The translations under genes and the position numbers were made by a program. The notes below the pieces were generated by a model. It had not been told where the DNA came from. It made no database searches and was given only the letters and a program-made list of their open reading frames with translations. A DNA stretch of 21,363 nt, the filler included, from Candidatus Woesearchaeota archaeon B3_Woes (lineage in GTDB: Archaea; Nanobdellota; Nanobdellia; Woesearchaeales; B3-WOES), in assembly GCA_005222965.1 (NCBI GenBank). It is 3 parts of 3 records of this genome, joined end to end, with 100 filler letters (N's around TTAATTAATTAA, not from the genome) between each part and the next. Parts side by side here need not be neighbours in the genome. Positions count along the whole stretch, not along the records: positions 6,825 to 13,139 come from NJBG01000004.1; positions 13,240 to 21,363 come from NJBG01000002.1; 1 more part is not named here. The stretch is one strand, 5' to 3'. Positions 4,651-21,096 of the stretch are shown piece by piece. Each line of letters opens with the position of its first letter. The first letter of the stretch is position 1.

Positions 4651-4696
4651 TATAAATTTTAAAAATTATAAATTATTTTCTATTTTCTGTTTTTGA

Positions 4697-6723: not shown

Positions 6724-6724
6724 G

Positions 6725-6824
6725 NNNNNNNNNNNNNNNNNNNNNNNNNNNNNNNNNNNNNNNNNNNNTTAATTAATTAANNNNNNNNNNNNNNNNNNNN
6801 NNNNNNNNNNNNNNNNNNNNNNNN
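6725..6824. other. Artificial contig linker (44 N + TTAATTAATTAA + 44 N)
   Basis: Six-frame stop linker within N runs; genes are truncated on both sides. Confidence 0.97.
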
Positions 6825-7049
6825 AGTACTTTAAGCAGGGCATTTTGGTTGGGGAATAGGATGCTTTTACATGGTAGACCTTCAACTTTTGACGAAATAA
6901 AAGAAAAAATTGAAGAAGTAAAAGTGAAAGATGTTCAAAAAATGGCTCAAAATATTTTTACCAAAGATAAAATAAATTTATCTATTGTTGGCCCCTTTAA
7001 AAAAAAGGATAAGGAAGAATACAATTCTCTCCTGCAGAAATTATGTTAG
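6825..7049 (+). CDS. M16 (pitrilysin/insulinase) family peptidase, C-terminal fragment
   Basis: STLSRAFWLGNRMLLHGRPSTFDEIKEKIEEVKVKDVQKMAQNIF...LSIVGP is a typical M16 C-terminus. The frame is open from the contig edge. Confidence 0.8.
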   Translation, partial: STLSRAFWLGNRMLLHGRPSTFDEIKEKIEEVKVKDVQKMAQNIFTKDKINLSIVGPFKKKDKEEYNSLLQKLC

Positions 7050-7229
7050 TCGATAATGAATAGTAATTCGTACCACGTATCGAGTATCGCGTCAAAATAC
7101 AGTAATAAGTGATATGTAATGAGTAATAAGTTTATGATCTTAAGTTTACAAAAACAGGTTACTTGTCACACATTACATATTACAAAACTTACTGGCTAAC
7201 TGGTAAACCGGGTAACCGGCTCACTAACG
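7047..7229 (+). repeat. Cluster of short-period arrays, including inverted GTAATAA-type heptamer arrays (7102-7131 / 7159-7192)
   Basis: TAGTCGATAATGAATAGT, CGTATCG-type array, GTAATAA/GTGATAT/GTAATGA versus TTACTTG/TCACACA/TTACATA, and an 8-mer AAC(T/C)GG(C/G/T)(T/A) array. Part of it is repeated at 13007-13134. Confidence 0.8.
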
Positions 7230-7262
7230 TAATTGACAAATCGGGAATAAGGATACAATAAC

Positions 7263-7451
7263 ATGCCATTAAAATTAGGGATGGGAGATATTATTAGATT
7301 AAAGAAGAAACATCCTTGTGGAGGTTTCCATTGGGAAATTACCAGGACCGGTATTGATATTGGCTTAAAATGTCTTTGTTGTGGCAGAAAAGTGTTAGTT
7401 CCTCGGGTAAAATTAGAGAAGAAAATTAAAGAAATTATTCCCAGAGATTAA
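7263..7451 (+). CDS. DUF951 (YyzM-like) small protein
   Basis: GDIIRLKKKHPCGG..WEITRTGIDIGLKCLCCGRKVLVPR..LEK. Confidence 0.9.
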   Translation: MPLKLGMGDIIRLKKKHPCGGFHWEITRTGIDIGLKCLCCGRKVLVPRVKLEKKIKEIIPRD

Positions 7452-7510
7452 GAAAAAAAATGATATTTTTTAATTTTGTATCCCAAACCTTTTCTTTCTC
7501 TTTAACTTTT

Positions 7511-7678
7511 TACGCAATATCCAATACGATATACAAATTCACAGTTTTCAGTTTACGGTTTTCAGTTAATAGTTGCAAGATATAAATTCATCTAGTTAGT
7601 TATAGTTACCGGGCTAATTGGTTTGATATTAATTTATTAACTAGCTAACTAAATGGATACGCAATATGCGATACGAAT
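7511..7678 (+). repeat. Intergenic short tandem arrays (CAGTTTT-type, AGTTAG/TAACTAG inverted pair, GATACGC-type)
   Basis: CAGTTTTCAGTTTACGGTTTTCAGT is the inverse of the GAAAACTGTCAACTG unit at 10208 and 10967; also TACGCAATATGCGATACGAA. Confidence 0.6.
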
Positions 7679-7684
7679 ATAAAC

Positions 7685-7712
7685 TTGATATCGAAAATAT
7701 CTGTGATATAAT
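7685..7712 (+). promoter_or_regulatory. Sigma70-type promoter for rpsF-rpsR
   Basis: TTGATA-16 nt-TATAAT with extended -10 (TGnTATAAT). Confidence 0.6.
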
Positions 7713-7734
7713 ATAAATCGTTTTATATTTCTAA

Positions 7735-7790
7735 TTTCCTTGCTCCTGAAAAATCTTTCAGGGGCTGATTAAACCGAAAGGAGGTGGTAA
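7735..7790 (+). promoter_or_regulatory. S6:S18 ribosomal protein leader RNA
   Basis: TTTCCTT can pair with the AAGGAGG SD. Inner stem GCTCCTGAAA/TTTCAGGGGC. Unpaired CCG at 7774-7776 just 5' of the SD, upstream of rpsF. Confidence 0.8.
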
Positions 7791-7793
7791 CAG

Positions 7794-8105
7794 ATGAGAA
7801 GTTATGAAGTAATGCTTGCCATAAATCCCCAGTTAGAAGACGAAGAGTTAGATTCCTTATTGACTAAATTCAAAAAGCTTATTACCGACGCAAAAGGAGA
7901 AATAACCAAAACAAATAAATGGGGCAAAAGGAAGTTAGCTTACGAAATTAAGGATTTTACAGAGGCGAATTATGTGGTCTTAAATTTTAATGTGGATGAA
8001 AAAATTATTTTAGAACTTGAAAGAGTTGTAAAGTTAGAAGAGAGAGTTATCAGATATTTATTGACCTTACAACATGAAGGAAAAAGTCAAAATAAGAACA
8101 GTTAA
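7794..8105 (+). CDS. rpsF: 30S ribosomal protein S6
   Basis: MRSYEVM...WGKRKLAYEIK...ELER...VIRYL; strong SD. Confidence 0.97.
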   Translation: MRSYEVMLAINPQLEDEELDSLLTKFKKLITDAKGEITKTNKWGKRKLAYEIKDFTEANYVVLNFNVDEKIILELERVVKLEERVIRYLLTLQHEGKSQNKNS

Positions 8106-8169
8106 TTAATTATTTAAACAAATACCGAAAAGAGAAGGTAGATTATTAAAGGAGGAAAAATATAAATTA

Positions 8170-8400
8170 ATGGCACGATACGGTTTTTTTAGAAGACCAC
8201 AAAGGAAAGTTTGTCTTTTTTGTAAAGAAAAAATATTAGCTGATTATAAGGATGTAGATTTATTAAGAAAATTTATTACTGAACAAGGTAAAATGCTGCC
8301 TCGTAGAGCAACCGGAAACTGCGCAAGACATCAACGTACACTGGCTATATCTATAAAAAGAGCAAGAGAAATAGGGCTTCTCCCTTATGTGGCGAAATAA
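8170..8400 (+). CDS. rpsR: 30S ribosomal protein S18 (zinc-binding C+ form)
   Basis: [51 protein letters not shown]. Confidence 0.97.
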
Positions 8401-8406
8401 GTAAAT

Positions 8407-8670
8407 TAGTATATAGTATGTAGTATTTCGTATATCGTATTTCGTATATCGTTAGGATCTGAATGTTACGCGCCGGTTTATATTCTGGATTCTGACTACT
8501 GGCTCCTGACTTCTATTTTCTTCACGAGATACGAGATACGAATTTATTCTGTATCATGATTTCTATGCTCTTCACGGGATATAACTCACAACATAAAATA
8601 TATAAGATGTGATTTTGATTTTACCATCTTAACTTTTTGTTTTTCACGATATACGATATACTATATACGA
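8407..8670 (+). repeat. Inverted heptamer arrays (T(A/C)GTATA)n ... (ACGATAT)n enclosing further arrays
   Basis: Left arm 8407-8452, right arm 8646-8670. Interior has TTCTGGATTCTGACTACTGGCTCCTGAC and CACGAGATACGAGATACGAA. Confidence 0.85.
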
Positions 8671-8714
8671 AAAAAGTTTTAAACTTTTTTAATACAAAGG
8701 AAGAGGCTTGTTTA

Positions 8715-9677
8715 TTGACTGAACAAATTCCAACTAAATCAATAGTTGAGGGTGCATTTTTAGCCGCAATTACTGCCGTTTTATTTATTATTAGTATTTA
8801 TATTCCCTTACTAGGTACACTGGTAAGTTTTTTGTGCCCTCTCCCGATTATAATTTTATGTTTACGCCATAGCATAAAGTTTGCTATTATCGCAACTTTT
8901 ATATCAGGGATTTTGGTAACTATTTTAGCTGGTCCCCTGCAAGGGCTTATGGTGCTGTTAGGTTTTGGAATATTAGGGCTAACTTTAGGTTTTGGTATAA
9001 AAAAAGGATTATCTTTAACTGATATTATTATCATTGGAAGCATAGCTTCTCTTATTTCTAAAGGTTTAATCCTTTTAATCGGTTTTTGGGTTTTAGATCT
9101 CAACACCGTGTTATTTGACATAGAAGAAATAGATAAAATTATAACTCAATCTTTGAATTTTTATAGCAATATGGGACTATCTCCGGAACAATTAGCTTCC
9201 CTGAAAGATTCCCTAACTCAAACCATTAGTATTGTTAGAATAGCATTCCCGGGAATGATTATTCTTGCTTCAATTTTTGATACTATTTTAAATTACTGGG
9301 TAGCTCGCTTAATCTTAAGGAGATTTGGATATAAGTTAACGAACTTTACTTCCTTCTTTAACTGGAGAGCTTCCAAGTCTTTTTTTTGGAGTTATCTTTT
9401 AGGGATGGTATTGATAATTCTGGGAACAACTTATAAGATACCTCTTTTAAATAAAACTGGAATAAATATACAAGTTTTTTTTGCAGTGGTATTTTTGATT
9501 TATGGTCTTTCTTTAACCGGTTTTATATTAGAGCGGTTTAAAATTAAAAATTTTTTAAAGTGGGTTATATATATTCTGGTATGCTTTCAACCACTTTTAT
9601 CCCAAATTGTTACCTGGGCAGCCATGTTAGATATATGGATAGATTTTAGAAGATTACTTACTGCAAAAAAAGAATAA
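8715..9677 (+). CDS. yybS: YybS/DUF2232 family membrane protein
   Basis: TKSIVEGAFLAAITAVL...PLPIIIL..RH...DIWIDFRR with many hydrophobic segments. Lies between rpsR and rplI. Likely TTG start at 8715 after GAGG. Confidence 0.88.
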   Translation: MTEQIPTKSIVEGAFLAAITAVLFIISIYIPLLGTLVSFLCPLPIIILCLRHSIKFAIIATFISGILVTILAGPLQGLMVLLGFGILGLTLGFGIKKGLSLTDIIIIGSIASLISKGLILLIGFWVLDLNTVLFDIEEIDKIITQSLNFYSNMGLSPEQLASLKDSLTQTISIVRIAFPGMIILASIFDTILNYWVARLILRRFGYKLTNFTSFFNWRASKSFFWSYLLGMVLIILGTTYKIPLLNKTGINIQVFFAVVFLIYGLSLTGFILERFKIKNFLKWVIYILVCFQPLLSQIVTWAAMLDIWIDFRRLLTAKKE

Positions 9678-9682
9678 TTTGA

Positions 9683-10263
9683 TATATCGTATATCGTATA
9701 TCATATATCGTTTAGCAGCAGTTAGCTGGTTACCTGGTTAACTAGTTAAGAAAATAAAAGATAAAAATAAGTAGTCAGGAGCCAGAATCCAGGAGCCAGA
9801 AGATTATTAGCGTATAGCGGGTAGCGTTTAGAGTATAGTTATAGCGAAAAACGAAAAACGAAAAATGAAAAGCGCAAAGCGCAAAACTATATTCGTATCT
9901 CGTATCTCGTGAATCGTATCTCGCAAAAAAACAAATAATTAAAAATATTAAAAAATTAAAAAGTTATATGTTTGAATTTATTTTTCTTTCGAGATACTAG
10001 ATACGAGATACGAACAACGAAATTGTATCTCGTATCTCGCAGATAAGATAGAAGCCAGAAGACAGAATCCAGTATTCAGAATATTTTAGAATATAAGACT
10101 ATATTATCTTGTTAACTTATTTTATATTCTTCTGACTCGTGACTACTGACTCCTGAATTCTTAAATAATAATTATAGCTTTTCGCTTTAAGTTTTTAGTT
10201 ACATGCTGAAAACTGTCAACTGAGAACCTGTATTTGATGCTAACGACTATTCACTAACGACTA
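9683..10263 (+). repeat. Nested cluster of at least seven short tandem-array families
   Basis: TATATCG, GGTTA(G/C/A)CT, AG(G/A)A(G/T)CC, TAGCGTA, AAAA(A/G)CG, CGTATCT and CTAACGA arrays, several with inverted partners. Confidence 0.9.
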
Positions 10264-10270
10264 ATAAATG

Positions 10271-10299
10271 TTGCTAAAATTGATGGAAGAATTTATAAT
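10271..10299 (+). promoter_or_regulatory. Putative sigma70 promoter for rplI-dnaB
   Basis: TTGCTA-17 nt-TATAAT. Confidence 0.5.
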
Positions 10300-10330
10300 A
10301 AATAGAGAATAGAGCAGGGAGGCTTAGAAT

Positions 10331-10816
10331 ATGAAAATAATTTTAAAGCAAAATATTGAAAAAATTGGACAAGTAGGAGATGTAGTTGAAGTAAGCAACG
10401 GCTTTGCCCGTAATTTCTTGATTCCTCAAGGCAAAGCAATTTCTTTTACCATAGGTAATTTTAAACAAGTAGAATATTTAAAGAAACGAGAAATAGAACA
10501 AAAAGAGGGGGAGTTGAAGGAAGTTAAGGAATTAGCAGAGAAAATTAATAATATTTCCATGGAAATTAAAGTTAAAGCCGGGGAAGAAGGGAAGCTTTTC
10601 GGTTCTGTAACAAGCAAAGATATTGTTGAAACTCTGTTAAAGGAACACGGAATTGAATTAGACAAAAAGAAACTTAATTTAAAAGAATCCTTAAAAAAAT
10701 TGGGTGTTCATACTGTATCGGTTAACTTATATAAAGATATAACTCCTCAAATTAAAGTTAATTTAATTTCTGATTCTGCATCTGAGCAGAAAGCAGAGGT
10801 AATAAAAAAAGAATAA
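10331..10816 (+). CDS. rplI: 50S ribosomal protein L9
   Basis: MKIILKQ...GDVVEVSNGFARNFLIPQGKA...GKLFGSVTSKDI. Confidence 0.97.
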   Translation: MKIILKQNIEKIGQVGDVVEVSNGFARNFLIPQGKAISFTIGNFKQVEYLKKREIEQKEGELKEVKELAEKINNISMEIKVKAGEEGKLFGSVTSKDIVETLLKEHGIELDKKKLNLKESLKKLGVHTVSVNLYKDITPQIKVNLISDSASEQKAEVIKKE

Positions 10817-10845
10817 TTTAGTATATAGTATATGGTTACCGTATA

Positions 10846-10958
10846 TAGCGAAAAACGAAAAGCGCAAAACGTAAAACTATAACTAAAAATTAAAAATTTA
10901 GAAAAAAGTTTTGAGTTTTGAATTATGGTTTTTCACTTTTAGCCTTAACTTTTTAGTT
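10846..10958 (+). mobile_element. Empty inverted-array mini-element (TAGCGAAAAA...TTTTTAGTT)
   Basis: Two ~53-nt imperfect inverted arms separated by ~6 nt. 10906-10934 is a 29/29 reverse-complement match to 17752-17780. Confidence 0.7.
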
Positions 10959-10966
10959 GTTATACC

Positions 10967-11029
10967 GAAAACTGTCAACTGAAAACCTGTATTTAATGCT
11001 AACGACTAACGACTATCCACTATCGACTA
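10967..11029 (+). repeat. Direct repeat of 10208-10263
   Basis: GAAAACTGTCAACTGA(A/G)AACCTGTATTT(A/G)ATGCTAACGACTA is 40/42 identical between the copies. Confidence 0.9.
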
Positions 11030-11049
11030 TTTAACAGGGAGAAAAGCAA

Positions 11050-12381
11050 ATGGAATTAGGCAGGAATCCTCCACAAAATATTAGTGCAGAACAGGCTGCT
11101 TTAGGTTCAATGTTGCTTCAGGAAGATGCCATTTTACATGGTGTGGATATTTTAAGACCTGAAGATTTTTACAAAAAATCTCACCAGATTATCTTTAAGT
11201 GTATTCTTGAATTGTTTGAAAAGAGCAGTGGTGTTGATTTAGTTACTTTAACTGAGGAATTAAATAGGGTAAATTTATTAGAAGAGATCGGGGGAGTTAC
11301 CTACCTAACTAATCTAATTAATAGTGTCCCTACTGCAGCAAATGTTGAGTACTACATTAAAATTATCGAAGAAAAATCTATTTTACGTAACTTAATTAAT
11401 AGTGCTACTAAAATTATTTCTATGGGGTATGAAGAAAAAGAAGATGCCAAAGTTTTACTGGATAAAGCAGAACATTTAGTATTCGAAATATCACAGAGAA
11501 ATATAAGGCAATCTTTTGTTCCTATTAAGGAGCTAATTACGGATAGTTATGAAAAAATTGAAGACCTATATCACCGGGAAGAATTTATTACCGGAGTTTC
11601 CAGTGGATTTGACGAATTTGATGAAATTACTACTGGTTTTCAACCTTCTGAGTTTATAGTCATTGCTGGAAGACCTGCTATGGGTAAGACAGCATTTTGT
11701 ATGAGTATTGCTCAATATGCAAGCATATCCAAAAATACACCGGTAGCAATTTTTAGTTTAGAGATGTCAAAGTCTCAATTAGTGCAAAGGATGCTTTGTT
11801 CAGAAGCTCGGATTGATGCCCATAATTTAAGAAAAGGACGATTAGCGGAAAAAGATTGGGCTCCACTTTCTATGGCAGCTGGTCGGTTAGCTTCTGCTCC
11901 CATTTTTATTGATGATACAGCCGGGATTACTTGTTTAGAAATAAAAGCTAAGGCCAGGCGTCTAAAAGCTCAATACAATCTTGGTTTAGTAATTATAGAT
12001 TATTTACAGCTTATTTCAAGTTCCGGCAGAATAGAAAATAGACAGCAGGAGATTTCAGAAATTTCTCGTTCTCTTAAAGGTCTGGCCAGAGAATTAAATG
12101 TCCCGGTAATTGCAGTTTCCCAATTATCCAGAGCAGTAGAACAGAGAATTGAAAGAAGACCCCGTCTTTCTGATTTACGAGAAAGTGGTGCTATTGAACA
12201 GGATGCTGACTTAGTAGTTTTTATATACCGAGAAGAATACTACAAACCTAAGACGGAAAAAAAGAGAATTGCTGAGGTAATTATTAGCAAACAGAGAAAC
12301 GGGCCAACAGGTAAGGTGGAATTAACCTTTATAAAGGAATATGCTAAATTTGAAAATTTAGCCCGTATTTCTGAAGAATAA
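11050..12381 (+). CDS. dnaB: Replicative DNA helicase
   Basis: PPQNISAEQAALG, Walker A GRPAMGKT, IIDYLQL, SQLSR and SDLRESGAIEQDAD; no intein. Confidence 0.98.
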   Translation: MELGRNPPQNISAEQAALGSMLLQEDAILHGVDILRPEDFYKKSHQIIFKCILELFEKSSGVDLVTLTEELNRVNLLEEIGGVTYLTNLINSVPTAANVEYYIKIIEEKSILRNLINSATKIISMGYEEKEDAKVLLDKAEHLVFEISQRNIRQSFVPIKELITDSYEKIEDLYHREEFITGVSSGFDEFDEITTGFQPSEFIVIAGRPAMGKTAFCMSIAQYASISKNTPVAIFSLEMSKSQLVQRMLCSEARIDAHNLRKGRLAEKDWAPLSMAAGRLASAPIFIDDTAGITCLEIKAKARRLKAQYNLGLVIIDYLQLISSSGRIENRQQEISEISRSLKGLARELNVPVIAVSQLSRAVEQRIERRPRLSDLRESGAIEQDADLVVFIYREEYYKPKTEKKRIAEVIISKQRNGPTGKVELTFIKEYAKFENLARISEE

Positions 12382-12533
12382 TTATTTAATAATAACAAAA
12401 TAATAAGTTAGTGTAAACTTTAATGGGGTAGTTAGATAGAAAGAAGAATGCTACTTTTTCTATCTTTTCTTTCGCTTTCTTAGCTCAATACTCAATACGA
12501 ATTTATTCTAATTTCTGGTTTATATTATCTTTA

Positions 12534-12566
12534 CGAGATACGATTCACGAGATACGAGATACGAAT
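12534..12566 (-). repeat. CGTATCT-type heptamer array, exact inverted copy of 9891-9923
   Basis: CGAGATACGATTCACGAGATACGAGATACGAAT is the reverse complement of ATTCGTATCTCGTATCTCGTGAATCGTATCTCG. Confidence 0.9.
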
Positions 12567-12573
12567 CAAGTTA

Positions 12574-12602
12574 TTGACAGGTAGTAAAAAATATAGTAAC
12601 AT
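12574..12602 (+). promoter_or_regulatory. Sigma70 promoter for the tRNA cluster
   Basis: TTGACA-17 nt-TAACAT ending 36 nt upstream of tRNA-Lys. Confidence 0.65.
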
Positions 12603-12638
12603 TTAGAAGCAAAAATTCTTTAATTTTAAATATTTTTA

Positions 12639-12711
12639 GGGCCGTTAGCTCAGTTGGTAGAGCATCTGACTCTTAATCAGAGGGTCGCAGGTTCGAAACC
12701 TGCACGGCCCA
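12639..12711 (+). tRNA. tRNA-Lys(CTT), CCA not encoded
   Basis: Acceptor stem GGGCCGT/ACGGCCC; anticodon arm TCTGA-CTCTTAA-TCAGA; T loop TTCGAAA. Confidence 0.96.
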
Positions 12712-12719
12712 TCGAAAAT

Positions 12720-12794
12720 GCCCCCATCGTCTAGGGGACAGGACACCGCCCTTTCACGGCGGCGACAGGGGTTCAAATCCCCTTGGGGGCACCA
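12720..12794 (+). tRNA. tRNA-Glu(TTC)
   Basis: GCCCCCA/TGGGGGC; CCGCC-CTTTCAC-GGCGG; TTCAAAT; ACCA. Confidence 0.95.
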
Positions 12795-12814
12795 ATTGAT
12801 TTATTGTAAAAAAT

Positions 12815-12890
12815 GGGCGGATAGCTCAGTTGGCAGAGCACCTGCTTCACATGTAGGGGGTCACAGGTTCAAGTCCTGTTCCGCCTACCA
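12815..12890 (+). tRNA. tRNA-Val(CAC)
   Basis: GGGCGGA/TCCGCCT; CCTGC-TTCACAT-GTAGG; TTCAAGT; ACCA. Confidence 0.95.
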
Positions 12891-12910
12891 TTTTTTTATA
12901 AGGATATGAT

Positions 12911-12986
12911 GCCGGCGTAGCTCAATTGGAAGAGCAACGGAATCGTAATCCGTAGGTTGTCTGTTCAACTCAGATCGCCGGCTCCA
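12911..12986 (+). tRNA. tRNA-Thr(CGT)
   Basis: GCCGGCG/CGCCGGC; ACGGA-ATCGTAA-TCCGT; TTCAACT; TCCA. Confidence 0.92.
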
Positions 12987-12993
12987 AATGATA

Positions 12994-13134
12994 GTATCGC
13001 GTATCGCGTATCGAGTATTGCGTTAAAATACAGGAAAAATTAGTAGGGGCAGACCTCGTGTCTGCCCGTAATAAGTAATGAGTTTATGATCTTAAATTTA
13101 TAAAAATAGGTTACTTGTCACACATTACATATTA
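12994..13134 (+). repeat. Second copy of the 7076-7182 repeat, interrupted by a REP-like palindrome
   Basis: CGTATCGAGTAT(T/C)GCGT(T/C)AAAATACAG and AGTTTATGATCTTAA...AGGTTACTTGTCACACATTACATATTA are shared. Confidence 0.88.
13043..13067 (+). repeat. GTAG-family REP-like palindrome
   Basis: GTAG + GGGCAGAC-CTCGT-GTCTGCCC (perfect 8-bp stem). Confidence 0.75.
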
Positions 13135-13139
13135 AAAAA

Positions 13140-13239
13140 NNNNNNNNNNNNNNNNNNNNNNNNNNNNNNNNNNNNNNNNNNNNTTAATTAATTAANNNNN
13201 NNNNNNNNNNNNNNNNNNNNNNNNNNNNNNNNNNNNNNN
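13140..13239. other. Artificial contig linker
   Basis: 44 N + TTAATTAATTAA + 44 N, same as 6725-6824. Confidence 0.97.
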
Positions 13240-13263
13240 ATCACTTCCTATCGCTATCTTCAT
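13240..13263 (-). CDS. rpiB: Ribose-5-phosphate isomerase B, first 8 codons only (truncated by the contig edge)
   Basis: MKIAIGSD with SD GGTGAG, directly downstream of the LMW phosphatase as in the conserved ywlE-rpiB order. Confidence 0.75.
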
Positions 13264-13280
13264 CTAATATCTCACCACCA

Positions 13281-13784
13281 TTATTTATTATTTTCTTCAA
13301 GAATTTTATCTAATATCTTTTCTAAGTTTTCTTTCAACTCTCTTGCTACAATTCGATAAAATTCTATAGGTCTACCAAGAGGGTCAACTATTTCATAGTT
13401 CTCGTTAGTTTTTTGTATACTTTTAAATTCGCCAATCTGAGCAAATTCTTTAATCAAATAAATTTTATCTTGAGCAAAGGTAAATTTTGTTCTAATATAA
13501 TCTTTATGTGTATTGGACATAACCAAAATTATATCTGCCTTTTTAACCAAATCTTCTTGTACTTGGGTGGCTATTTGTCGCGAAATATCAACACCTTGCT
13601 CAACCATAACCTTAATTGCTTCAGAAGTGGGTCGCATACCCTGCAGAGCAAAAATTCCAGCTGATATAATATTAAATCTGGTATCATCCTCTGTTCTTTC
13701 TTTTAACATTTTTTTAAATATACCTTCCGCCATAGCGCTTCGGCAGGTATTACCGGTACAGATAAATAAGATGGTTTTGATCAT
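13281..13784 (-). CDS. Low-molecular-weight protein (arginine/tyrosine) phosphatase, YwlE-like
   Basis: ILFICTGNTCRSAMAE P-loop and DPLG acid loop; lies between prmC and rpiB. Confidence 0.92.
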   Translation of the reverse strand: MIKTILFICTGNTCRSAMAEGIFKKMLKERTEDDTRFNIISAGIFALQGMRPTSEAIKVMVEQGVDISRQIATQVQEDLVKKADIILVMSNTHKDYIRTKFTFAQDKIYLIKEFAQIGEFKSIQKTNENYEIVDPLGRPIEFYRIVARELKENLEKILDKILEENNK

Positions 13785-13854
13785 TTTAAATTACCTTTAT
13801 CCTTTGGCAATATAATTGCAACATACTTAATGACTTAATTTTTCACACCTTCTA

Positions 13855-14117
13855 AACTAAAAAACTTAAAGCGAAAAGCGCAAAACCATAATTTAAAATT
13901 CAAAACTTTTTATTTCGTATCGTATGATGTTTATTGCGTATTGCGTTTGAATTTGTTTTTATAGATTATTCTATTCATTTCTAAGGTTCGGTAAACGGAC
14001 CACTATTAAACTAAAACGTATAATTATAAGCGATAAACGTAATTTAAAACTTAAAAATTTCCTCAATTTTAAATTTTGAGCTATAGCTTTGCGTTTTGCG
14101 CTTTTCTTTTTTCGCTA
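13855..14117 (-). mobile_element. Inverted-array mini-element (TAGCGAAAAA...TTTTTAGTT) with ~150-nt decayed interior
   Basis: Arms 13855-13909 and ~14065-14117 resemble those at 10846-10958 and 17728-18006. A TAGCGTA array lies at 14120-14154. Confidence 0.7.
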
Positions 14118-14159
14118 AATACTCTATACGCTATACGCTAAACGCTCTACGCTAGTTAT

Positions 14160-15046
14160 TTATTTTCTGTATGCTATTACTACTCTCTCTATCCCCAAAT
14201 AATCATTTATAACTTCTATATTTTGATTAAAGCTATTCTCTCTAATAATTAATTCTTCAACTATTTTCGACTGATTTATACCTACTTCTAATGCTATAAA
14301 ACCGCTTTTTTTTAAATAATAAGGGCTTTTCTTTATAATTTTGCGATAATAATCTAAACCGTCAATTCCTCCAGATAAAGCAATCTTAGGTTCATTATCT
14401 TTTATTTCGGGTGGCAATAATTTAAAATTGTAAGAATCTATATAAGGAGGATTTGAAATAATTCCATCTAAGCTGTTTTTTTCAATTCTACCGATAAAAG
14501 GTTCAAATAAGTCTCCCTGTAGAAATATAATTTTATCTTTACTATCATGTTTTTGAGTATTTTTTAATGCTACTTGCAAAGATTTTTTAGAAATATCGGT
14601 TGCGTAGATGATAATATTTTCTATAAATTTAGCTATACTTATAGCAATTATACCTGTACCGGTTCCTAAATCTACTACCTTTAAATTATTAGAATATTTA
14701 TAATTTTTTAATCTTTTGATAACTTCGTCTACTAAAATCTCTGTTTCCGGTCGAGGGATTAAAACTCCTTTTTCTACCAAAAAATCCATCCCCATAAATT
14801 CTTGATGTTTAGTTATATATTGGAGGGGAATTTTATCTATTCTTTTTTGAATCTTTTTCCCTAATTGTTTTTTTTCTATATCTTTTAATATTCTTTCAGA
14901 ATTCAAATATATTTCACTTCTGCTCATTCCTAGAAAATAATTTAATAGAATTTCCGCTTCTCTTCCTGGATTTATTATTCCCTTATTTTTAAATATTTTA
15001 CGAATATTTTTTAAGGCTTGCCCTACAGTTTGAAATTTATACTCAT
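14160..15046 (-). CDS. prmC: Release factor glutamine methyltransferase; start uncertain (first in-frame ATG 14927, out-of-frame ATG 15046)
   Basis: LIPRPETE, DLGTGTG and NPPY motifs. The N-terminal domain FQTVGQAL...GREAEILL is encoded in frame upstream of 14927. Confidence 0.9.
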
Positions 15047-15059
15047 TTACCCCATTATT

Positions 15060-16118
15060 TTATACTTCGCTGCTCTTTTTTAATTTTTCTGAAAGATTGA
15101 CTACCAAATCATTTAAATTTCCTTCTAATACTTCTTCTAAATTATGTAAATTTAAACCAATACGATGATCGGTTATTCTATTTTGAGGGAAATTATAAGT
15201 TCTAATTCTTTCACTTCTATCTCCTGTGCCCACCTGGCTTTTTCTCTTCTTAGCAAGCTCATTATGTTTTTCTCTTTCTGCCATATCTAAAAGCCTTGCT
15301 CTTAATATTTTTAAAGCCTTAGCTTTGTTCTTATGTTGGGATTTCTCATCCTGGCAGGTGACTACCAATCCGGTGGGAATATGGGTAATCCTTATTGCTG
15401 AATCTGTAGTATTAACGCTTTGCCCTCCAGGACCGGTAGAACGAAAACGGTCAATTTTTAAATCATTTGGACTAATTTCCAGTTCTACCTCTTCTACCTC
15501 AGGAAGTATAGCCACCGTAACAGTTGAAGTATGTATCCTTCCGCTTGATTCGGTAACAGGAACACGTTGAACTCGATGTACTCCACTCTCGTGTTTTAAC
15601 TTTCCGTATACTTCTTTTCCTATTATGTCAAATATTATCTCTTTAAATCCTCCGATTCCGGTAGGACTAGAACTCATTACTTCAGTTTTCCATCCATTAT
15701 TTTCTGCAAATCGAGAATACATTCTAAAAAGGTCACCGGCAAAAAGTGCAGCTTCGTCACCTCCGGCGCCAGCTCTTACTTCTACTATGCAATTTTTTTT
15801 ATCGTAAGGGTCTTTGGGGAAGATAATTTCTTTTAACTCAATTTCTAAATTTGATTTCTTCTCTTTTAATTTTTCTAATTCTTCATTTATTAATTTTTTA
15901 AATTCTACATCTTTTTCTTTTGGTAATAATTTTGAATTTTCATCAATCTCTTCTATTATGCCCTTATATTCCTTGTATTTTAAAACTGCTTTAGAAATAT
16001 CAGAGTGCAACTTTGCACATTTCTGAAATTCAACTTGATTAGCAATAATTTTTGGGTCAGAAAGATCTTTATTCAATTCTTCGTATTTTTTCTCTAATTC
16101 TTCTAATTTTTCAAACAT
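15060..16118 (-). CDS. prfA: Peptide chain release factor 1
   Basis: GGQ motif, RF1-specific PVT ([10 protein letters not shown]), [17 protein letters not shown]. Confidence 0.98.
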
Positions 16119-17013
16119 TATTTACCACTTCAGATTTTATATTTTTATTTTCTTCGGGCAAAACACCTTTTAATGCGTTTATAGCCACCTCAATCTGAGC
16201 ATCATCAGGTTCGCTGGTAGTGAGTTTTTGAAACCATAATCCGGGCATCACCGCCCATTTTACAAAAGTTTTATTCATGTTTTTTGCTGATAATTTTAAA
16301 ATTTCATAAGACAAACCGGCTATTAGAGGAATTATAGCAATTCTATAGGCTATTCTTAAAAGCAATGTTTGCTTCCCCAGCAAAGAAAATACTAAAATAC
16401 TTATTACTAAAACTATAAAAATAAAGCTTGTTCCACATCGAGGATGTAAAGTACTGTATTTTTTCACATTAATTATGTTAAGTTCTTCGCCTGATTCATA
16501 GGTATATATCACTTTATGTTCTGCTCCATGATATTCAAACACTCTTTTAATATCTTTTATTTTAGATATAAAAAACAGATAAGTTATAAATATTCCAATT
16601 CTTAACATTCCTTCGAACAAATTATATACAATTAAATTAGCAAGATATTTATCTAAGTATCTAGCTATTGCCGTAGGAAAAGCTATGAAAAAAACTATAA
16701 ATAGCCCAAAAGCAATTAGAATTGTAAAAAACATTTCTACGCTATTTATTTTTTCTTCTTCACCTGTTGCCTGTTCTGCAGAATAAGTTAATGCCTTCAA
16801 ACCAAGAACCAAAGACTCAATTAAATTAATTATTCCTCTAAAAATAGGCCATTTAAGAAATTTCATCTTATTGGATAATGATTTTAATTTACCTATTTTT
16901 AAAATTATTTCTTTATCTGGTTTACGAACAGCAATGGCATATTTTAAAGGAGATCTCATCATTACTCCTTCAATTACCGCTTGACCACCATAATTACAGT
17001 CAGCATTTTTCAT
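16111..17013 (-). CDS. DUF1385 membrane protein (putative metal-dependent)
   Basis: [29 protein letters not shown] and LTTSEP motifs. Confidence 0.93.
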
Positions 17014-17015
17014 TA

Positions 17016-17711
17016 TTATCCATTTACTCCTTTTTCTTTATTTTTAGACCAGGGTTTACCACAGGATAATTCCCCTTCGGGGCAAGGTCCTAAAATGCAA
17101 GGCGGCCCGGCATTTTCAAATATAGTTGGGGCAATTTTTTTAACTTCTCTTAACATATTCATAGCAACTTCTCTAATCTCCCATTGAGCTCTATTGCAAC
17201 ATCTTAATTTAAAGATAAGCAGTAATTCCCGTGCATTTGCAGATATTATCATTTTAGTTGTAACCGCCTGTGGCAAAATATATCTTGCATCTTCTGCTTC
17301 TATATTATGATCTAATAATATATGGTAAATTCTGTCTAATTTTTTAATAGCATTGATAAATATTTTATTTAATTTTTCTTCCTGCGCAATAGATTTTGGA
17401 ACAATATAAGGAAATCCTTTTTCACTTATTTTAACGTACCTTTGGCTTTGTTGAGAAAAAGAAGCAAGCCGATGTCTTACTAACTGATGAGAAGTGACCC
17501 GGGAAATTCCTTCTATAGCAAAAGTAAAAGTGGCATGCTCTAAAACAGAATAATGTCCCAATTTTATTATCTTTTTAATTAAGTTTGTTCTGGATTTATC
17601 AGTAAACTTTTCATTTAATTCATCAATACCTAATTCAGAATAACATAATCTTGCTGACTGAGCTACTATTTTTTCAGGGTCTTTAGTGTAATTTATCAAC
17701 CTAACTTTCAT
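17016..17711 (-). CDS. thyX: FAD-dependent thymidylate synthase
   Basis: HYSVLEH, RHRLASFSQQSQRY, EDARYILP, AQWEIR. Confidence 0.97.
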   Translation of the reverse strand: MKVRLINYTKDPEKIVAQSARLCYSELGIDELNEKFTDKSRTNLIKKIIKLGHYSVLEHATFTFAIEGISRVTSHQLVRHRLASFSQQSQRYVKISEKGFPYIVPKSIAQEEKLNKIFINAIKKLDRIYHILLDHNIEAEDARYILPQAVTTKMIISANARELLLIFKLRCCNRAQWEIREVAMNMLREVKKIAPTIFENAGPPCILGPCPEGELSCGKPWSKNKEKGVNG

Positions 17712-17727
17712 AGAATTAAACTCCTGT

Positions 17728-18006
17728 AACTAAAAACGTAAAGCGAAAAGCGAAAAACCATAATTCAAAACTCAAAACTTATCTTCCTCTTGAGAGTTAA
17801 TATACTTGAACGCAATATATTTGCTAATTCTTTTATTTCGTTTAAAAGTATTCTTCTGTTTGTTATTTATTTTCTTAGTATCTTTCGGTAAATTAGTCCA
17901 ATATATATTCTCTATTATAAGATTTAAAGTAATAATCAAAAAAACCGTCCTAATATTTTAAGTTTTAAGCTAGGGTTTTGCGTTTTGCACTTTTAGTTTT
18001 TCGCTA
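17728..18006 (-). mobile_element. Inverted-array element carrying a decayed four-helix-bundle gene
   Basis: Arms 17728-17780 and ~17958-18006 are imperfect inverted repeats shared with three other copies. Confidence 0.72.
17779..17945 (-). pseudogene. Four-helix-bundle protein (TIGR02436 / 23S rRNA IVP-like) C-terminal remnant
   Basis: Reads FLIITLNLIIENIYWTNLPKDTKK, then in a shifted frame ILLNEIKELANILRSSILTLK(GR*). This resembles the family C-terminus 'F..IALKSANETxYWLxLLRD...LLxExxELxxILxSSILTLK' as recalled from memory. Confidence 0.65.
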
Positions 18007-18079
18007 ATTCTGCTCTCACTTCATGCCCGCGCCTATACGCTATACGCTCTACGCTAGTTCCGCGATACGATATACGAAA

Positions 18080-18658
18080 CTATTTCTTTAGTACTACATG
18101 GCATTTCCGACATCTCGCTTCATAACTTTCTTTTGCTCCAATCAATATGGTTGGATCGCTATACTTTGCTGGCTGACCATTTACTAATCTTTGAGTCCTG
18201 GAAGCAGTATTACCACAAATTATACATATTGCTTGTAACTTATCTACATATTCTGCTACTGCAAGCAATTTAGGTATCGGGCCAAATGGTTCTCCCCTAA
18301 AATCCTGGTCTAAACCTGCAATGATTACCCTTTTCCCTTGATCTGCAAGTTCTTGGCAAATGGATACAATATCATCATCATAAAATTGAGCTTCATCAAT
18401 AGCGATTACCTCAGTATCCGGTTCAATACTTTCTAAAATTTCTTTTGGCTTAGTAATATTTATAGCTTCAACCTTAGTGCCATTATGTGAGTAAATATAC
18501 TGAACAGCGTATCTATTATCAATTGTTGGTTTAAATACCTGAACCTTTTTTTTAGCAATTTGAACTCTACGCACTCTTCTTATTAATTCTTCACTCTTCC
18601 CGCTAAACATACTCCCACATATAACTTCGATCCAACCAGTATTTTCACCTTCACGCAT
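18080..18658 (-). CDS. tdk: Thymidine kinase
   Basis: [32 protein letters not shown], CxxC...[11 protein letters not shown] 18658 follows SD GGAGG. Confidence 0.97.
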
Positions 18659-18684
18659 TTTTTCCCTCCTCTGCACTATAAAAT

Positions 18685-18716
18685 TAGTCGATAGTGAACA
18701 GTCGTTAGTCTTTAGC
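18685..18716 (-). repeat. CTAACGA-type array upstream of tdk
   Basis: Minus strand GCTAAAGACTAACGACTGTTCACTATCGACTA matches 10998-11029 upstream of dnaB. Confidence 0.8.
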
Positions 18717-18758
18717 TTAAAACTTAAAACTTTTTTCGTATAAAGTACTGCTTTTAAA

Positions 18759-18847
18759 GTAGGGGGTCGGATTTATCTGACCCGTTTTCATTGCGGATTC
18801 GATGCCTGCCTGTGTGTTTCCGCACGCTGACAGGCATCGAATCCTAC
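18759..18847. repeat. Inverted pair of GTAG-type REP-like palindromes (REPIN-like) with an extra hairpin in the second
   Basis: Starts with GTAG and ends with CTAC. Stem GGGTCGGA/TCTGACCC; perfect 14-bp stem 18795-18808 / 18831-18844. Confidence 0.7.
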
Positions 18848-18882
18848 GAAAAAAGAAAATTCCTATACAATTAAATTAACAT

Positions 18883-18920
18883 AAAAAAGACAGAACCCTA
18901 TAAAAGCTCTGTCTTTTTTT
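18883..18920 (-). terminator. Intrinsic terminator downstream of rpmE (possibly bidirectional)
   Basis: Minus strand GACAGAGC-loop-GTTCTGTC-TTTTTT, with an A-tract on the other side. Confidence 0.65.
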
Positions 18921-19079
18921 AAATAGATTCATCATTTTATTACAAATGTTCTTGAATAATATCTTTTTCTCTTTCATACTTTTTATTCTTGTAATCATTT
19001 ATCAAAAACTTTTTTATTTCTTTTTTAATGGTATATTTATTTTTGAAATTATTTAAATATTTTTATGGCAACACCTTAA

Positions 19080-19301
19080 TTAATTATCACTATCTTCATC
19101 ATTGGTTAAATTATATTTTTTATTAAATCTCTCAACTCTTCCCGCAGTATCAATCATCTTTTGTTTACCGGTAAAAAAGGGGTGACAGACAGAACATATT
19201 TCTACTTTCATGTTCTTTTTGGTAGAACCGGTTTCAAAGCTGTTACCGCAAGCACAACTTATTATTGATTTTTCATATTTTGGATGTATATCTTTTTTCA
19301 T
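19080..19301 (-). CDS. rpmE: 50S ribosomal protein L31 (zinc-binding type)
   Basis: MKKDIHPKY...CACG...[24 protein letters not shown]. Confidence 0.97.
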
Positions 19302-19356
19302 TTTTCCTTTCCTCTAACTTCCTTTTCTTTATATTTAATAGATTAAAAATATAGAA

Positions 19357-19385
19357 ATTATAACATATAATTATTTTAAGGTCAA
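19357..19385 (-). promoter_or_regulatory. Sigma70 promoter for rpmE
   Basis: TTGACC-17 nt-TATAAT with extended -10 TG. Confidence 0.7.
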
Positions 19386-19392
19386 AGTTTAA

Positions 19393-19712
19393 TTCGTATC
19401 TCGCTAAAAATTAGTTAGTTAGTTACCTGGTTAAGAAAATAAAAGAAAAAAACCAGGAGTCAGAATAAATTCGTATCGCGTAAAGAGAAAAAACTCAAAA
19501 AAAATAGTAACCATCATATTCGTATCGCCTATATTATATCAGCTATTTCCGTAAAAAAAAGATAAAAACAATAATTACAACTATTTTTTCTATATATCCT
19601 ATTAAAGTTTACACTAACTTCGTATCTCGTGAATCGTATCTCGTTTTTTTAATGTACAGCCTATAGAATATAGAATAATAAAAATTACAAAAGTCATAGA
19701 AGTCAGAATCCA
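19393..19712. repeat. Decayed short-array cluster between rho and rpmE
   Basis: TTCGTATCTCG; AGTTACCTGGTTAAGAAAATAAAAG (cf. 9730-9760); CCAGGAGTCAGAA; TCGTATCTCGTGAATCGTATCTCG (19620-19643, same as 9900-9923); AGAAGTCAGAATCC. Confidence 0.75.
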
Positions 19713-19845
19713 AAATAAAATTGGTATTGTGTATTGATTAAATAAAAAAATAAAAACAATAAAAAAACTATTATCTCCTTTTTCTAGGTGCCACACTAAA
19801 TTTACACTATCTAAAATTTTTTTTGTTTCTACTTAAAATATTTTA

Positions 19846-21096
19846 TTAAATATCCTGTTCTTTAATAGAATCTAAAAACTCTTGATTGTTCTTTGTCTTT
19901 TTTAATTTATTAATCACTAATTTTACCGCACCCAGAGATGATTGCGAAGACAGCGCTCTTCTTAGTAACCATATTTTCTGTAAATTTTCTTTTGGTAGTA
20001 ACAATTCTTCTTTTCGAGTACCTGATTTCCTAATATCAATTGCCGGAAATATTCGATTTTCAGAAAGTTCTCTATCTAACCTTAATTCCATATTGCCAGT
20101 ACCTTTAAATTCCTCAAATATTACATCATCCATTCTGCTTCCTGTCTCTACTAAAGCGGTTGCAAGTATAGTCAAGCTACCTCCCTCTTCAATATTTCTC
20201 GCTGCTCCAAAGAATCTTTTTGGTAAATAAAGAGCACTTGAATCTAAACCACCAGATAGAGTTTTTCCACTTGTTGGAATAGTTTGATTGTAAGCGCGCG
20301 CTAATCTCGTAATGCTATCTAATAATATGACTACATCTTTTTTTTGCTCTACTAACCTTTTAGCTCTTTCCAAGACAATTTCCGCTATTTTTATATGATT
20401 ACTTACAGGTTGGTCAAAAGTAGAGCTTATTACTTCAGCTTTCACTGATCTTTGCATGCCAGTTACTTCTTCTGGTCTTTCATCAACTAATAAAACCATA
20501 AGGTTTATTTCTGGATGATTAGCAGTTATCCCATTTGCAATCTTTTCCAGTAAAATTGTCTTACCTGCCTTTGGAGGGGAAACTATTAGACCTCGTTGAC
20601 CTTTTCCAATTGGTGAAAATATATCAATAATTCGTGTTGATAGTCCGCCTAATTTATTTTCTAATTTTATCATCTCTTCGGGAAAAAGAGGAGTAAGGTT
20701 TTCAAAATCTATTCTTTCTTTAGATAATTCTGGATCTTCATGGTTAACTGCTTCAATTTTCAATAAAGCATAATATCTTTCTCCTTCTTTAGGAGGTCTA
20801 ACCTGGCCTGACACAAGATCACCAATACTAAGATTAAATCTTCTTATTTGAGAAGGAGAAATATAAATATCATTTTCGCCTGGTAAATAGCCTCCTGTTC
20901 TTAAAAAACCAAATCCCTCATTCATAATCTCCAAAATCCCTTCAGAAAACATATAACCCTTCTTCTCTGTTTCAGCTTGTAAAATTTTGAAGATCAAATC
21001 CATCTTTTTTACTCTGGAAAAATTGTTAATATTATATTCTTTAGCAATTTTACATAAATCGTTAATCTTTTTTTCCTTTAATTCTGTTAAGAGCAA
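19846..21096 (-). CDS. rho: Transcription termination factor Rho
   Basis: [51 protein letters not shown] start after GGGAGG. Confidence 0.98.

Follow-up and report, generated by a model that had tools for sequence, protein, structure and literature searches.

The heptanucleotide repeats of heterocystous cyanobacteria are known as short tandemly repeated repetitive (STRR) sequences. More widely, heptanucleotides have been reported to be the most abundant long simple-sequence repeats in most of the prokaryotic genomes surveyed, and a 7-nt footprint of the polymerase has been proposed to favour slippage (Mrazek 2007, as summarised in PMC4679880). Intergenic heptameric repeats have been described in Xanthomonas and Nostoc, at conserved sites and with variable length and sequence, some of them in inverted pairs, and three tandem heptanucleotides have been reported in Calothrix (PMC4692102); polymerase slippage has been proposed as the cause of heptamer repeats (PMC4692102; PMC4679880). 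In the Beggiatoaceae, repeats of TAACTGA in forward orientation precede start codons (MacGregor 2015, PMC4679880). Here we describe arrays of degenerate 7-nt units in the intergenic spacers of a window of 21,363 nt (the whole stretch of DNA analysed), in which linkers of N (at 6725-6768, 6781-6824, 13140-13183 and 13196-13239) connect three contigs. To judge from the relatives of its DnaB, the window belongs to an uncultured genome of the Atribacterota, a phylum that is abundant in anoxic sediments and in oil reservoirs and nearly all of whose members are uncultured. Intergenic heptad repeats are known as a kind; those described here stand out by the number of families per spacer, their common order, their mirror symmetry and their polarity relative to the genes.

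The periodicity is seen most simply in base identity at fixed lags. In the 4,292 nt of intergenic DNA of contigs 2 and 3 it reaches 0.426 at lag 7 and stays at 0.29-0.34 at the other lags between 3 and 13; lags 14 (0.377) and 21 (0.350) show harmonics, and coding DNA has no period-7 signal (0.283-0.284 at lag 7). Tandem Repeats Finder (TRF) returned 57 rows for the window, 30 of them with period 7 and 2.1-6.3 copies of the unit, and five more, with period 14 or 21, that represent the same arrays. All 30 period-7 rows are intergenic, 29 lying in spacers of contigs 2 and 3 and one in contig 1 (4674-4693). Under identical TRF settings, 50 neighbour-preserving shuffles of the contig 2 and 3 spacers (4,318 nt) gave a mean of 0.68 rows and a maximum of 3, against the 29 found, and at least one TRF row is present in 10 of the 13 such spacers of at least 130 nt. 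Both in their head-to-tail repetition of a 7-nt unit and in their over-representation in intergenic DNA, relative to chance and to other periods, the arrays are like heptanucleotide simple-sequence repeats.

An earlier note on this DNA had claimed that most long spacers of contigs 2 and 3 contain arrays of degenerate units of about 7 bp, and this is borne out, as is every unit type that it named, including the 8-nt GGTTAnCT type. Nine of its eleven intervals hold a TRF period-7 row; the remaining two, 7047-7229 and 18685-18716, are not scored by TRF. The former holds degenerate arrays below the TRF score (these are the only arrays of the spacer 7050-7262, which has a lag-7 excess of +0.18), and the latter a minus-strand CTAnnnA-type array next to a TRF row at 18716-18732. 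Its further statement that contig 1 lacks arrays fails on the array at 4674-4693, and the contrast with contig 1 carries no weight in any case, because that contig has only about 831-861 nt of non-coding DNA, in which this one array lies.

For comparison, the dnaB loci of relatives (numbered L001 and so on) were used, so that the comparative data concern the dnaB neighbourhood, that is, orthologues of contig 2. Clade A comprises 26 loci with a DnaB at least 83% identical to that of the window, among them Ca. Sediminicultor and Ca. Phoenicimicrobium, and clade B comprises 16 loci at 68-72% identity, among them Ca. Stramentimicrobium and Ca. Oleihabitans; Sediminicultor and Stramentimicrobium are placed in different families of one class in the NCBI taxonomy. 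The 38 remaining dnaB loci, from other phyla, served as outside controls. The clade-A census covers window contigs 2 and 3 plus the 26 loci, with non-coding DNA called by a rule of open reading frames (ORFs) of at least 80 aa. This census, like the flank and spacer counts given below, pools orthologous spacers of related loci and therefore overstates the number of independent events.

In this census, 86.7 kb of non-coding DNA hold 160 arrays of period 7 and 30 of period 8; the remaining periods between 4 and 12 contribute 7 altogether. The 211.8 kb of coding DNA hold 5 arrays of period 7. A lag-7 excess of at least +0.03 is found in 23 of the 26 clade-A loci and in 2 of the 16 clade-B loci. 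Clade B has 17 arrays, nearly all of them of GTAT type, several being identical dispersed copies within L024. There, one identical 24-nt GTAT-type array occurs five times (8515, 11969, 15571, 15713 and 15814), and once more in L027 (270); this is the dispersal of a single copy, and the five do not count as independent arrays. Arrays of heptads, in part with inverted partners, are also present in the Nitrospinota loci L041 and L042 and in L053, L060 and L078, and the heptad phenomenon as such is therefore not limited to the Atribacterota. These carriers outside the phylum include the Nitrospinota metagenome-assembled genomes (MAGs) and unclassified 'bacterium' MAGs; in one locus of this group (L041 5020-5080, L042, L053, L060, L078) a back-to-back inverted heptad pair lies in the spacer before rplI. 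An assembly artefact was considered and ruled out, the pattern being present in 23 of 26 clade-A records, which bear the names of many different isolates and bins.

The genes themselves are fixed. In each of the 39 Atribacterota loci extending past dnaB, whether of the array-rich or of the array-poor clade, the order is M16-like peptidase, DUF951, rpsF, rpsR, DUF2232, rplI, dnaB (L008, L030 and L039 carry dnaB only and stand outside this count). The spacers are variable: the five array-bearing spacers have median lengths of 198-268 nt in clade A (with ranges up to 57-653 and 60-656 nt) compared to 16-165 nt in clade B, and the rpsF-rpsR spacer, which has gained no arrays in clade A, is about 63 nt throughout. 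Non-coding DNA makes up 29% of the sampled clade-A DNA compared to 22% in the sister clade B, on an ORF-based estimate, and the excess is mostly repeat filler. In the DUF2232-rplI spacer, the last ~65 nt, containing a promoter-like site, the 5' untranslated region (UTR) and the ribosome-binding site (RBS), are near-identical across clade A, and the part between stop codon and promoter is a different mosaic in each species. In all relatives it is the same orthologous spacers that hold arrays, and the arrays are a fast-changing, clade-wide trait of one family-level group of Atribacterota.

About 11 unit families are common to all clade-A species. Within a family, three or four unit positions are fixed and the rest vary (CTAnnnA, CAGnAnC). 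The layout was read from the rplI-dnaB spacers of 19 genomes and from a motif map of 166 co-directional clade-A spacers, and it is striking that the order of the families within a spacer is polarised with respect to the genes and mirror-symmetric, running from the stop codon to the next promoter or RBS. Family A (GTAT-type) follows the stop codon in 57 spacers at a median relative position of 0.11, its inverse A' lying at 0.81; B (TAGCGTA) lies at 0.07 and its reverse complement B' at 0.78; C (the 8-mer GGTTAnCT) at 0.24 and C' at 0.70; and E (CAGGAGC/CAGAATC) at 0.25 and E' at 0.79, with an A-rich linker, D, between C and E. Family I (CTAACGA/CTATTCA) comes last in the spacer in the sense orientation (58 spacers, median 0.79), and its inverse is found right after stop codons (21 spacers, median 0.12). 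Family K (the 8-mer AATTGGnn; median 0.58) is nearly sense-only and adjoins the RBS in the spacers between the M16-like and DUF951 genes. Families G (CArGTT) and H (CyGAAAA) occur in sense in 13 and 14 spacers, respectively, and in antisense in one each.

The flanks of the genes show the same polarity. In the 80 nt after stop codons (190 flanks), GTATx3 is found 14 times and ATACx3 twice, and TAGx4 10 times and CTAx4 once; in the 80 nt before start codons (193 flanks), CTAx4 is found 17 times and TAGx4 not at all, and ATACx3 13 times and GTATx3 not at all. In the window, a GTAT-type array begins no more than 8 nt after 6 of the 11 gene or tRNA 3' ends, always in sense. Six of the 12 minus-strand ORFs listed for clade A have an array after the stop codon in their own sense direction, although these six are at most three independent genes, and no opposite case was seen by eye. 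Since minus-strand genes carry the arrays in their own sense, the polarity follows the gene and not the strand of the contig.

That many arrays have an inverted partner, as the earlier note held, is also upheld. Partners in the window include 8406-8452/8646-8672, 9892-9931/9982-10021, 7109-7131/7161-7183 and 13868-13908/14071-14111, and among the 84 pairs of arrays sharing a spacer in clade A, 10 are inverted-only and 3 direct-only. When the two halves of each of 155 spacers were aligned, 33 alignments with a score of at least 36 were reverse-complement, compared to 22 direct, 3 mirror and 5 complement. Counts of 9-mers with at least three G or C in clade A are 955 reverse-complement, 686 direct, 512 mirror and 135 complement. 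A count of 8-mers, with 291 reverse-complement against 409 in the mirror control, was dropped as swamped by A/T-rich words. The enrichment of inverted partners is thus real but moderate. Also as claimed, the arrays are defined by their period and not by a sequence, many of them stand in a fold-back arrangement, and they fit neither an insertion sequence (IS) nor a CRISPR pattern. CRISPR was ruled out as a candidate because the units are 7-8 nt and abutting, in place of repeats of ~23-50 nt with unique spacers of similar size.

The arrays turn over rapidly. In 19 well-aligned pairs of orthologous spacers, censused under strict alignment settings, there are 63 internal indels, of which 17 are multiples of 7 nt, 9 are of 8 or 16 nt, 22 are of 1-3 nt and 15 have other lengths. 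Whole units are thus gained and lost, as 26 of the 41 indels of at least 4 nt are multiples of 7 nt or are of 8 or 16 nt, the aligned pairs not being independent. Copy number thus varies between relatives by whole units, as it does in STRR-type repeats.

Larger pieces turn over as well. Non-orthologous spacers share blocks of 60-180 nt, which stand in either orientation and are 75-97% identical: a block of families A, C, D and E has 25 matches in 11 sequences, a J-J'-H-I block has 47 matches in 19 sequences, and one recurrent block has a contig-3 match at 6175-6224 (the block of the rho-rpmE spacer). The rplI-dnaB spacer of L009, where DnaB is 89% identical to that of the window, contains an inverted copy (1778-1877) that matches the module at 7072-7190 with 97% identity. 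Compared to L001, the window is 99.6% identical over 257 nt up to and into the spacer between the M16-like and DUF951 genes, and after nucleotide 33 of that spacer the blocks are entirely different, the break lying inside a GTAT-type array; in the DUF2232-rplI spacer, about 500 nt of the window are absent from L001, and the last ~65 nt are near-identical. Seven aligned copies of the best-conserved dispersed module, here called the F module, have a core of ~85 nt in common and differ in their neighbours and ends. BLAST matches cover varying parts of each block, and the copies are without fixed length or defined termini.

These features are close to those of the STRR sequences and of the heptamers of Nostoc and Xanthomonas, which are likewise tandem 7-nt units of several families, intergenic, conserved in site, variable in length and sequence, and in some cases inverted. 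The differences are that the units here are other ones and AT-rich, that at least 11 families stand side by side in a single spacer, that their order is fixed, mirror-symmetric and gene-polarised, that 8-nt families are mixed in, and that the host is of a different phylum. The kinship would be a similarity in kind and not homology; identical units would not be expected, those of the window being AT-rich. In the literature on Atribacterota (Atribacter/JS1) repeats, we found no description of such arrays, the nearest papers being unrelated as far as their titles and the openings of their abstracts go.

On balance, we think that the arrays are probably heptanucleotide (and some octanucleotide) simple-sequence repeats of the STRR kind, forming hypervariable, quasi-palindromic filler that is resized by slippage and reshuffled by recombination. 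The arrays would arise and change in length by slipped-strand mispairing of 7 nt. They would then serve as short homologies for template switching, ectopic recombination or gene conversion, and such events at the DNA level could account both for the inverted copies and for the exchange of blocks. Exchange between co-oriented spacers would maintain the polarity, and when a gene is inverted between the inverted arms on either side of it, the inner half-spacers would travel with the gene, which would again preserve the polarity. The product would be a tolerated, self-renewing filler in the terminator-side zone of the spacer, the place taken in other bacteria by repetitive extragenic palindromes (REPs) and bacterial interspersed mosaic elements (BIMEs); a function in 3'-end hairpins or unstructured leaders is putative and would be secondary.

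Several points weigh against this explanation. Slippage alone leaves unexplained why about 11 families have one order and polarity in unrelated spacers, and how the polarity persists is something that we only infer. The 97% identity of the module shared with L009, compared to 89% for DnaB, could mean selection or recent transfer and not neutral filler, and the arrays may have a function at the RNA or DNA level. Fifteen of the 41 indels of at least 4 nt are not whole units. The counts come from pooled orthologous spacers of 26 related loci, which are not independent events, and the sample is the dnaB neighbourhood plus one further contig, not a whole genome.

A possible but unlikely alternative is that the arrays are selected RNA elements. 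The spacer would be transcribed, either as a 3' UTR or as intercistronic RNA, and pairing of its outer arrays would give a long stem-loop by which the message upstream is protected or terminated, in the manner of REPs and BIMEs; the C/A-rich arrays of CTAACGA or AATTGGnn, left unpaired, would provide a leader or standby site comparable to the TAACTGA repeats of the Beggiatoaceae. The polarity, which follows gene direction, is consistent with this, as is the fact that classical terminators are predicted in few spacers, most array-bearing spacers being without such a site. Duplexes between the first 60 nt and the last 100 nt of a spacer have a mean energy of -20.7 kcal/mol, compared to -14.0 kcal/mol for a reverse-complemented control (n=145, p=1.5e-15). 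Duplexes formed with other spacers of the same locus reach -18.9 kcal/mol, so that the own spacer is slightly better (p=0.015); spacer ends pair almost equally well with the ends of other spacers, and the arms are therefore generic. Two of five window spacers fold well below their shuffles (z = -4.38 and -3.77, the latter being the DUF2232-rplI spacer with the arrays at 9990-10263), whereas the other three fold no better than shuffles (z = -1.06, -0.45 and -0.11). In the 33 arm alignments, mismatches that would be G.U in the sense RNA number 71 and those that would be G.U in the antisense RNA 76, with 195 more of transversion type, which gives no sign of pairing kept in a transcript. The consensus fold of nine copies of the F hairpin, with 18 pairs and a single compensatory change, says little either way. 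The array zone is moreover hypervariable between close relatives, whose promoter and UTR are conserved, and in at least four spacers the arrays stop upstream of the next promoter-like site and so are not in the leader of that gene.

The likeness to the TAACTGA repeats, a further point in favour of RNA elements, lies in position. These are heptamers in forward orientation, present in 2-6 copies directly 5' of start codons, those of ribosomal-protein operons among them, in marine Beggiatoaceae, some Cyanobacteria and Bacteroidetes, according to the account in PMC4679880; the CTAACGA/CTATTCA family is placed likewise, its CTAnnnA arrays standing forward just 5' of the RBS (CTAx4 in the 17 of 193 upstream flanks already given). 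However, the units here are CTAACGA, CTATTCA or CTATCGA and are followed by a normal GGAG-type RBS, whereas the Beggiatoaceae repeats are described there as overlapping the expected RBS. Family I is also only one of about 11 families here, and its inverse occurs after stop codons too.

Slightly less likely is that the blocks are non-autonomous mobile elements, akin to miniature inverted-repeat transposable elements (MITEs) or to REP doublets forming hairpins (REPINs), and moved by a transposase encoded elsewhere in the genome. Like MITEs, they are small, non-coding, multi-copy and intergenic, have inverted symmetry and are present or absent between close relatives, and their recurrence at non-orthologous spacers in both orientations is what mobile blocks would produce. 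But the blocks are fixed neither in their ends nor in length, and what adjoins the F core on either side varies from copy to copy; their breakpoints fall inside arrays; no target-site duplication was seen at the few junctions inspected by eye; and an order and polarity relative to the genes are unlike the outcome of free insertion. A Pfam scan of 25 of the 29 neighbouring protein clusters (~300 kb around dnaB in relatives) found no transposase, the other four clusters, DnaB, DUF2232, S6 and L9, being the window's own families; a lone serine recombinase stands next to the tRNA cluster of L002. The suggestion of the earlier note that the arrays are the ends of small mobile cassettes stands in part only: there is indeed turnover of blocks, which are found again in other spacers in one orientation or the other, but without cassette termini.

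BIMEs are mosaic elements, a further point in common with the spacers described here. REPs and the BIMEs of enterobacteria are also alike in being extragenic, mostly downstream of coding regions and between co-directional genes, with units in opposite orientations that are able to form larger folded structures (PMC3733652). The position and alternating orientation of the arrays agree with this. However, a REP is a single GC-rich palindrome of 20-40 bp with a GTAG or CGTC tag, and such tagged palindromes are not what the arms here consist of, these being untagged AT-rich tandem heptads.

The same spacers do contain hairpins that look like GTAG-tagged REPs by their sequence and appear distinct from the heptad arrays. 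They are GC-rich, open with GTAG and then GGGC (GTAGGGGCAGACC type), form several sequence families inside the AT-rich spacers, and are found in the window at 13043-13067 and 18757-18850, and also in L003, L004, L013, L014, L016, L018, L033 and L044. The F hairpin is uninterrupted at 7101-7183 and at the orthologous site of L018, and its further copy in the window is broken by the GTAG hairpin at 13043-13067. GTAG-tagged REPs are a class proposed to be moved by REP-associated tyrosine transposases (RAYTs; PMC3733652, as stated there), and the presence of this kind of hairpin in the array-bearing spacers counts in favour of mobile blocks.

We regard as doubtful a more ambitious proposal, an intergenic 'grammar' in which the ~11 array families, set around every transcription unit in their fixed, polarised mirror order, would be kept up by a dedicated mechanism and would shape or protect transcripts or DNA. 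The upkeep may lie with a repeat-writing or repeat-copying enzyme, or with a set of array-reading proteins, and in very slow-growing subsurface cells this may amount to a genome-wide cis system without a described counterpart.

It is improbable that the arrays act at the DNA level, as tandem sites for a nucleoid or regulatory protein or by giving shape to the DNA upstream of promoters. In four spacers they stop 6-10 nt upstream of a -35-like hexamer (promoter-like sites at 7685, 10271, 12574 and 19385), the three or four fixed positions per unit with the rest variable are as in tandem binding sites, and a regulatory role of promoter-near heptamer repeats has been proposed in Nostoc (bioRxiv 10.1101/2022.06.06.494920, as outlined there). 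However, a large number of binding proteins would be required for ~11 families, arrays at orthologous sites are hypervariable, and the promoter predictions are consensus matches only, whose numbers are near those in shuffles (31 compared to 25.0, and 49 compared to 40.4).

We give almost no credence to integron-like or other gene cassettes, in which each gene would be mobile together with its flanking inverted arms, for although spacers open with GTAT-type and close with ATAC-type arrays, so that each gene is formally flanked by inverted arms (around DUF2232, 8648-8672 and 9678-9702 match inverted at 88% over 25 nt), the genes are core housekeeping genes in one order in all 39 informative loci of both clades, with or without arrays, and so are not cassettes, the arms are generic, with the 5' end of one spacer pairing almost equally with the 3' end of any other, and no integrase lies nearby. 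Integron attC sites, whose arms consist of R and L boxes, are alike in being imperfect inverted repeats defined by structure and placed between co-oriented ORFs; here, by contrast, tandem arrays make up the arms, 39 of 39 loci have the core genes in synteny, and there is no integrase in the window. Integron cassettes were ruled out on the grounds of that gene order and of the missing integrase. The idea of cassette ends in the earlier note fails in the same way: the genes that would be enclosed (DUF951, rpsF, rpsR, DUF2232, rplI and dnaB) do not move, and the paired arms bracket the spacer, from stop codon to next promoter, and no consistent gene family. Fixation at orthologous spacers and the lack of an enclosed gene family speak against that idea, and inverted pairing in excess of the controls speaks for it.

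Contig 2 (6825-13139) carries on its plus strand the end of the M16-like peptidase gene, DUF951, rpsF, rpsR, DUF2232, rplI, dnaB and four tRNAs, and its spacers are described here from left to right. Directly after the M16-like stop codon, an inverted CTAnnnA-type array (I') is followed by a degenerate GTATCG-type (A) array (7047-7092), the region having an inverted match at 11005-11029. Next comes the F hairpin (7101-7183), the dispersed module of ~85 nt, with GTAATAA/GTGATAT-type heptads as one arm (7109-7131) and their inverse as the other (7161-7183), the two matching inverted at 83% over 23 nt; of its nine aligned copies, seven lie elsewhere, in clade-A loci. An 8-nt array of CTGGCTAA type, the inverse of the GGTTAnCT family, occupies 7192-7229. 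The DUF951-rpsF spacer (7512-7681) has ATAC-type arrays at 7512-7537 and 7659-7681 and 3.7 copies of CAGTTTT at 7542-7567, all upstream of a promoter-like site at 7685-7712.

Seven nucleotides after the rpsR stop codon begins an A array of 6.3 copies of xGTATxx (8407-8452). It is followed by a composite block (8480-8546), made of the inverse of the CAGGAGC/CAGAATC family and then 2.6 copies of ACGAGAT, which is complementary to 10020-10084 and 9739-9804, and by an A' array of 3.6 copies of ACGATAT (8646-8670), the inverted partner both of 8407-8452 and of 9683-9711. The left half of the DUF2232-rplI spacer (9683-9923) has TATATCG (4.1 copies), the 8-mer GTTAACTG (3.6 copies), an A-rich linker, CAGGAGC (3.4), TAGCGTA (5.7), CGAAAAA (6.1) and TCGTATC (4.4). 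Its right half (9990-10263) has 3.4 copies of CGAGATA, the inverse of TCGTATC, then GTATCTC, AAGACAG/CCAGAAG, 3.6 copies of CTGACTC, the inverse of CGAAAAA, a CTGAAAA-type array and a CTAACGA-type array at 10240-10263. The promoter-like site of rplI (TTGCTA, 17 nt, TATAAT), the 5' UTR and the RBS (10271-10330) lie outside the arrays. The rplI-dnaB spacer (10819-11030) contains TAGTATA (4.4 copies), CGAAAAA (4.1), its inverse AGTTTTG (3.9), a CTGAAAA-type array and CTATCGA/CTAACGA (4.6), the last stopping just 5' of the dnaB RBS. Further along, CTCAATA (2.1 copies) and TACGAGA (4.7 copies) at 12484-12564 stop 10 nt short of the tRNA cluster's promoter-like site (12574-12602), in a region complementary to 9885-9957, and the spacer after tRNA-Thr (12994-13134) has 4.3 copies of GTATCGC and then the F hairpin interrupted by the GC-rich GTAG-tagged hairpin at about 13043-13067.

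Contig 3 (13240-21363) carries rho, rpmE, tdk, thyX, DUF1385, prfA, prmC and a low-molecular-weight phosphatase (LMW-PTP) gene, all on the minus strand. Two of its spacers are described here in the sense direction. In that between prmC and LMW-PTP (13855-14154), 5.1 copies of AGCGTAT (14119-14154) directly follow the prmC stop codon, and after them come a GCGAAAA-type array (14071-14116) and its inverse (13860-13908). In that between tdk and thyX (17728-18079), six copies of a CGTATAG-type unit (18033-18076) directly follow the tdk stop codon, with a GCGAAAA-type array (17956-18001) and the inverse of that array (17732-17779) further on. A CTAACGA/CTATCGA-type array and 2.4 copies of CTTAAAA (18685-18732) lie, also on the minus strand, just 5' of the tdk RBS. 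In the rho-rpmE spacer (19393-19712; genes on the minus strand), the plus strand, antisense to the genes, reads TCGTATC, the GGTTAnCT type, an A-rich linker and CAGGAG, a block just upstream of the promoter-like site of rpmE (19385-19357); weaker arrays lie at 19614-19645 and 19662-19677. The sole classical terminator-like hairpin in a spacer, of 17 pairs followed by a T run, is found after rpmE at 18883-18919 on the minus strand.

Some further observations concern the genes. Contig 1 (1-6724) carries glycosyltransferase and radical-SAM genes. Two of its ORFs (3713-4009 and 4006-4650) overlap by 4 nt, the second starting midway through a radical-SAM domain (profile positions 28-95), and they may be one gene split by a frameshift. 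The best promoter-like site of contig 2, at 7685, is TTGATA, 16 nt, TG-TATAAT, with 11 of 12 consensus positions. At gathering scores, Rfam matched only the four tRNAs in the window, and at E<=1 it added, beside chance matches on the tRNAs, only a weak match to the RpsF leader. This match (7720-7796) lies 3' of the promoter-like site at 7685-7712 and is below threshold, with 23.4 bits compared to a gathering score of 37 and an E value of 0.32. In many Firmicutes, ssb sits between rpsF and rpsR; in all Atribacterota loci the two genes are adjacent, with a spacer of ~60 nt (8106-8169 in the window) and no gene between them. In L002, a large serine recombinase gene (7565-8956, minus strand) directly follows the tRNA cluster downstream of dnaB, and may mark an element integrated at a tRNA gene.

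The array pattern has practical consequences for metagenome assemblies of these bacteria, in which it affects gene calling, contig breaks and binning, and the hypervariable arrays could be used as strain markers. With its many heptanucleotide families occurring together, it also offers a natural setting in which to ask why bacterial slippage favours steps of 7 nt. If the ordered and polarised layout is functional, it would represent a new kind of intergenic organisation.

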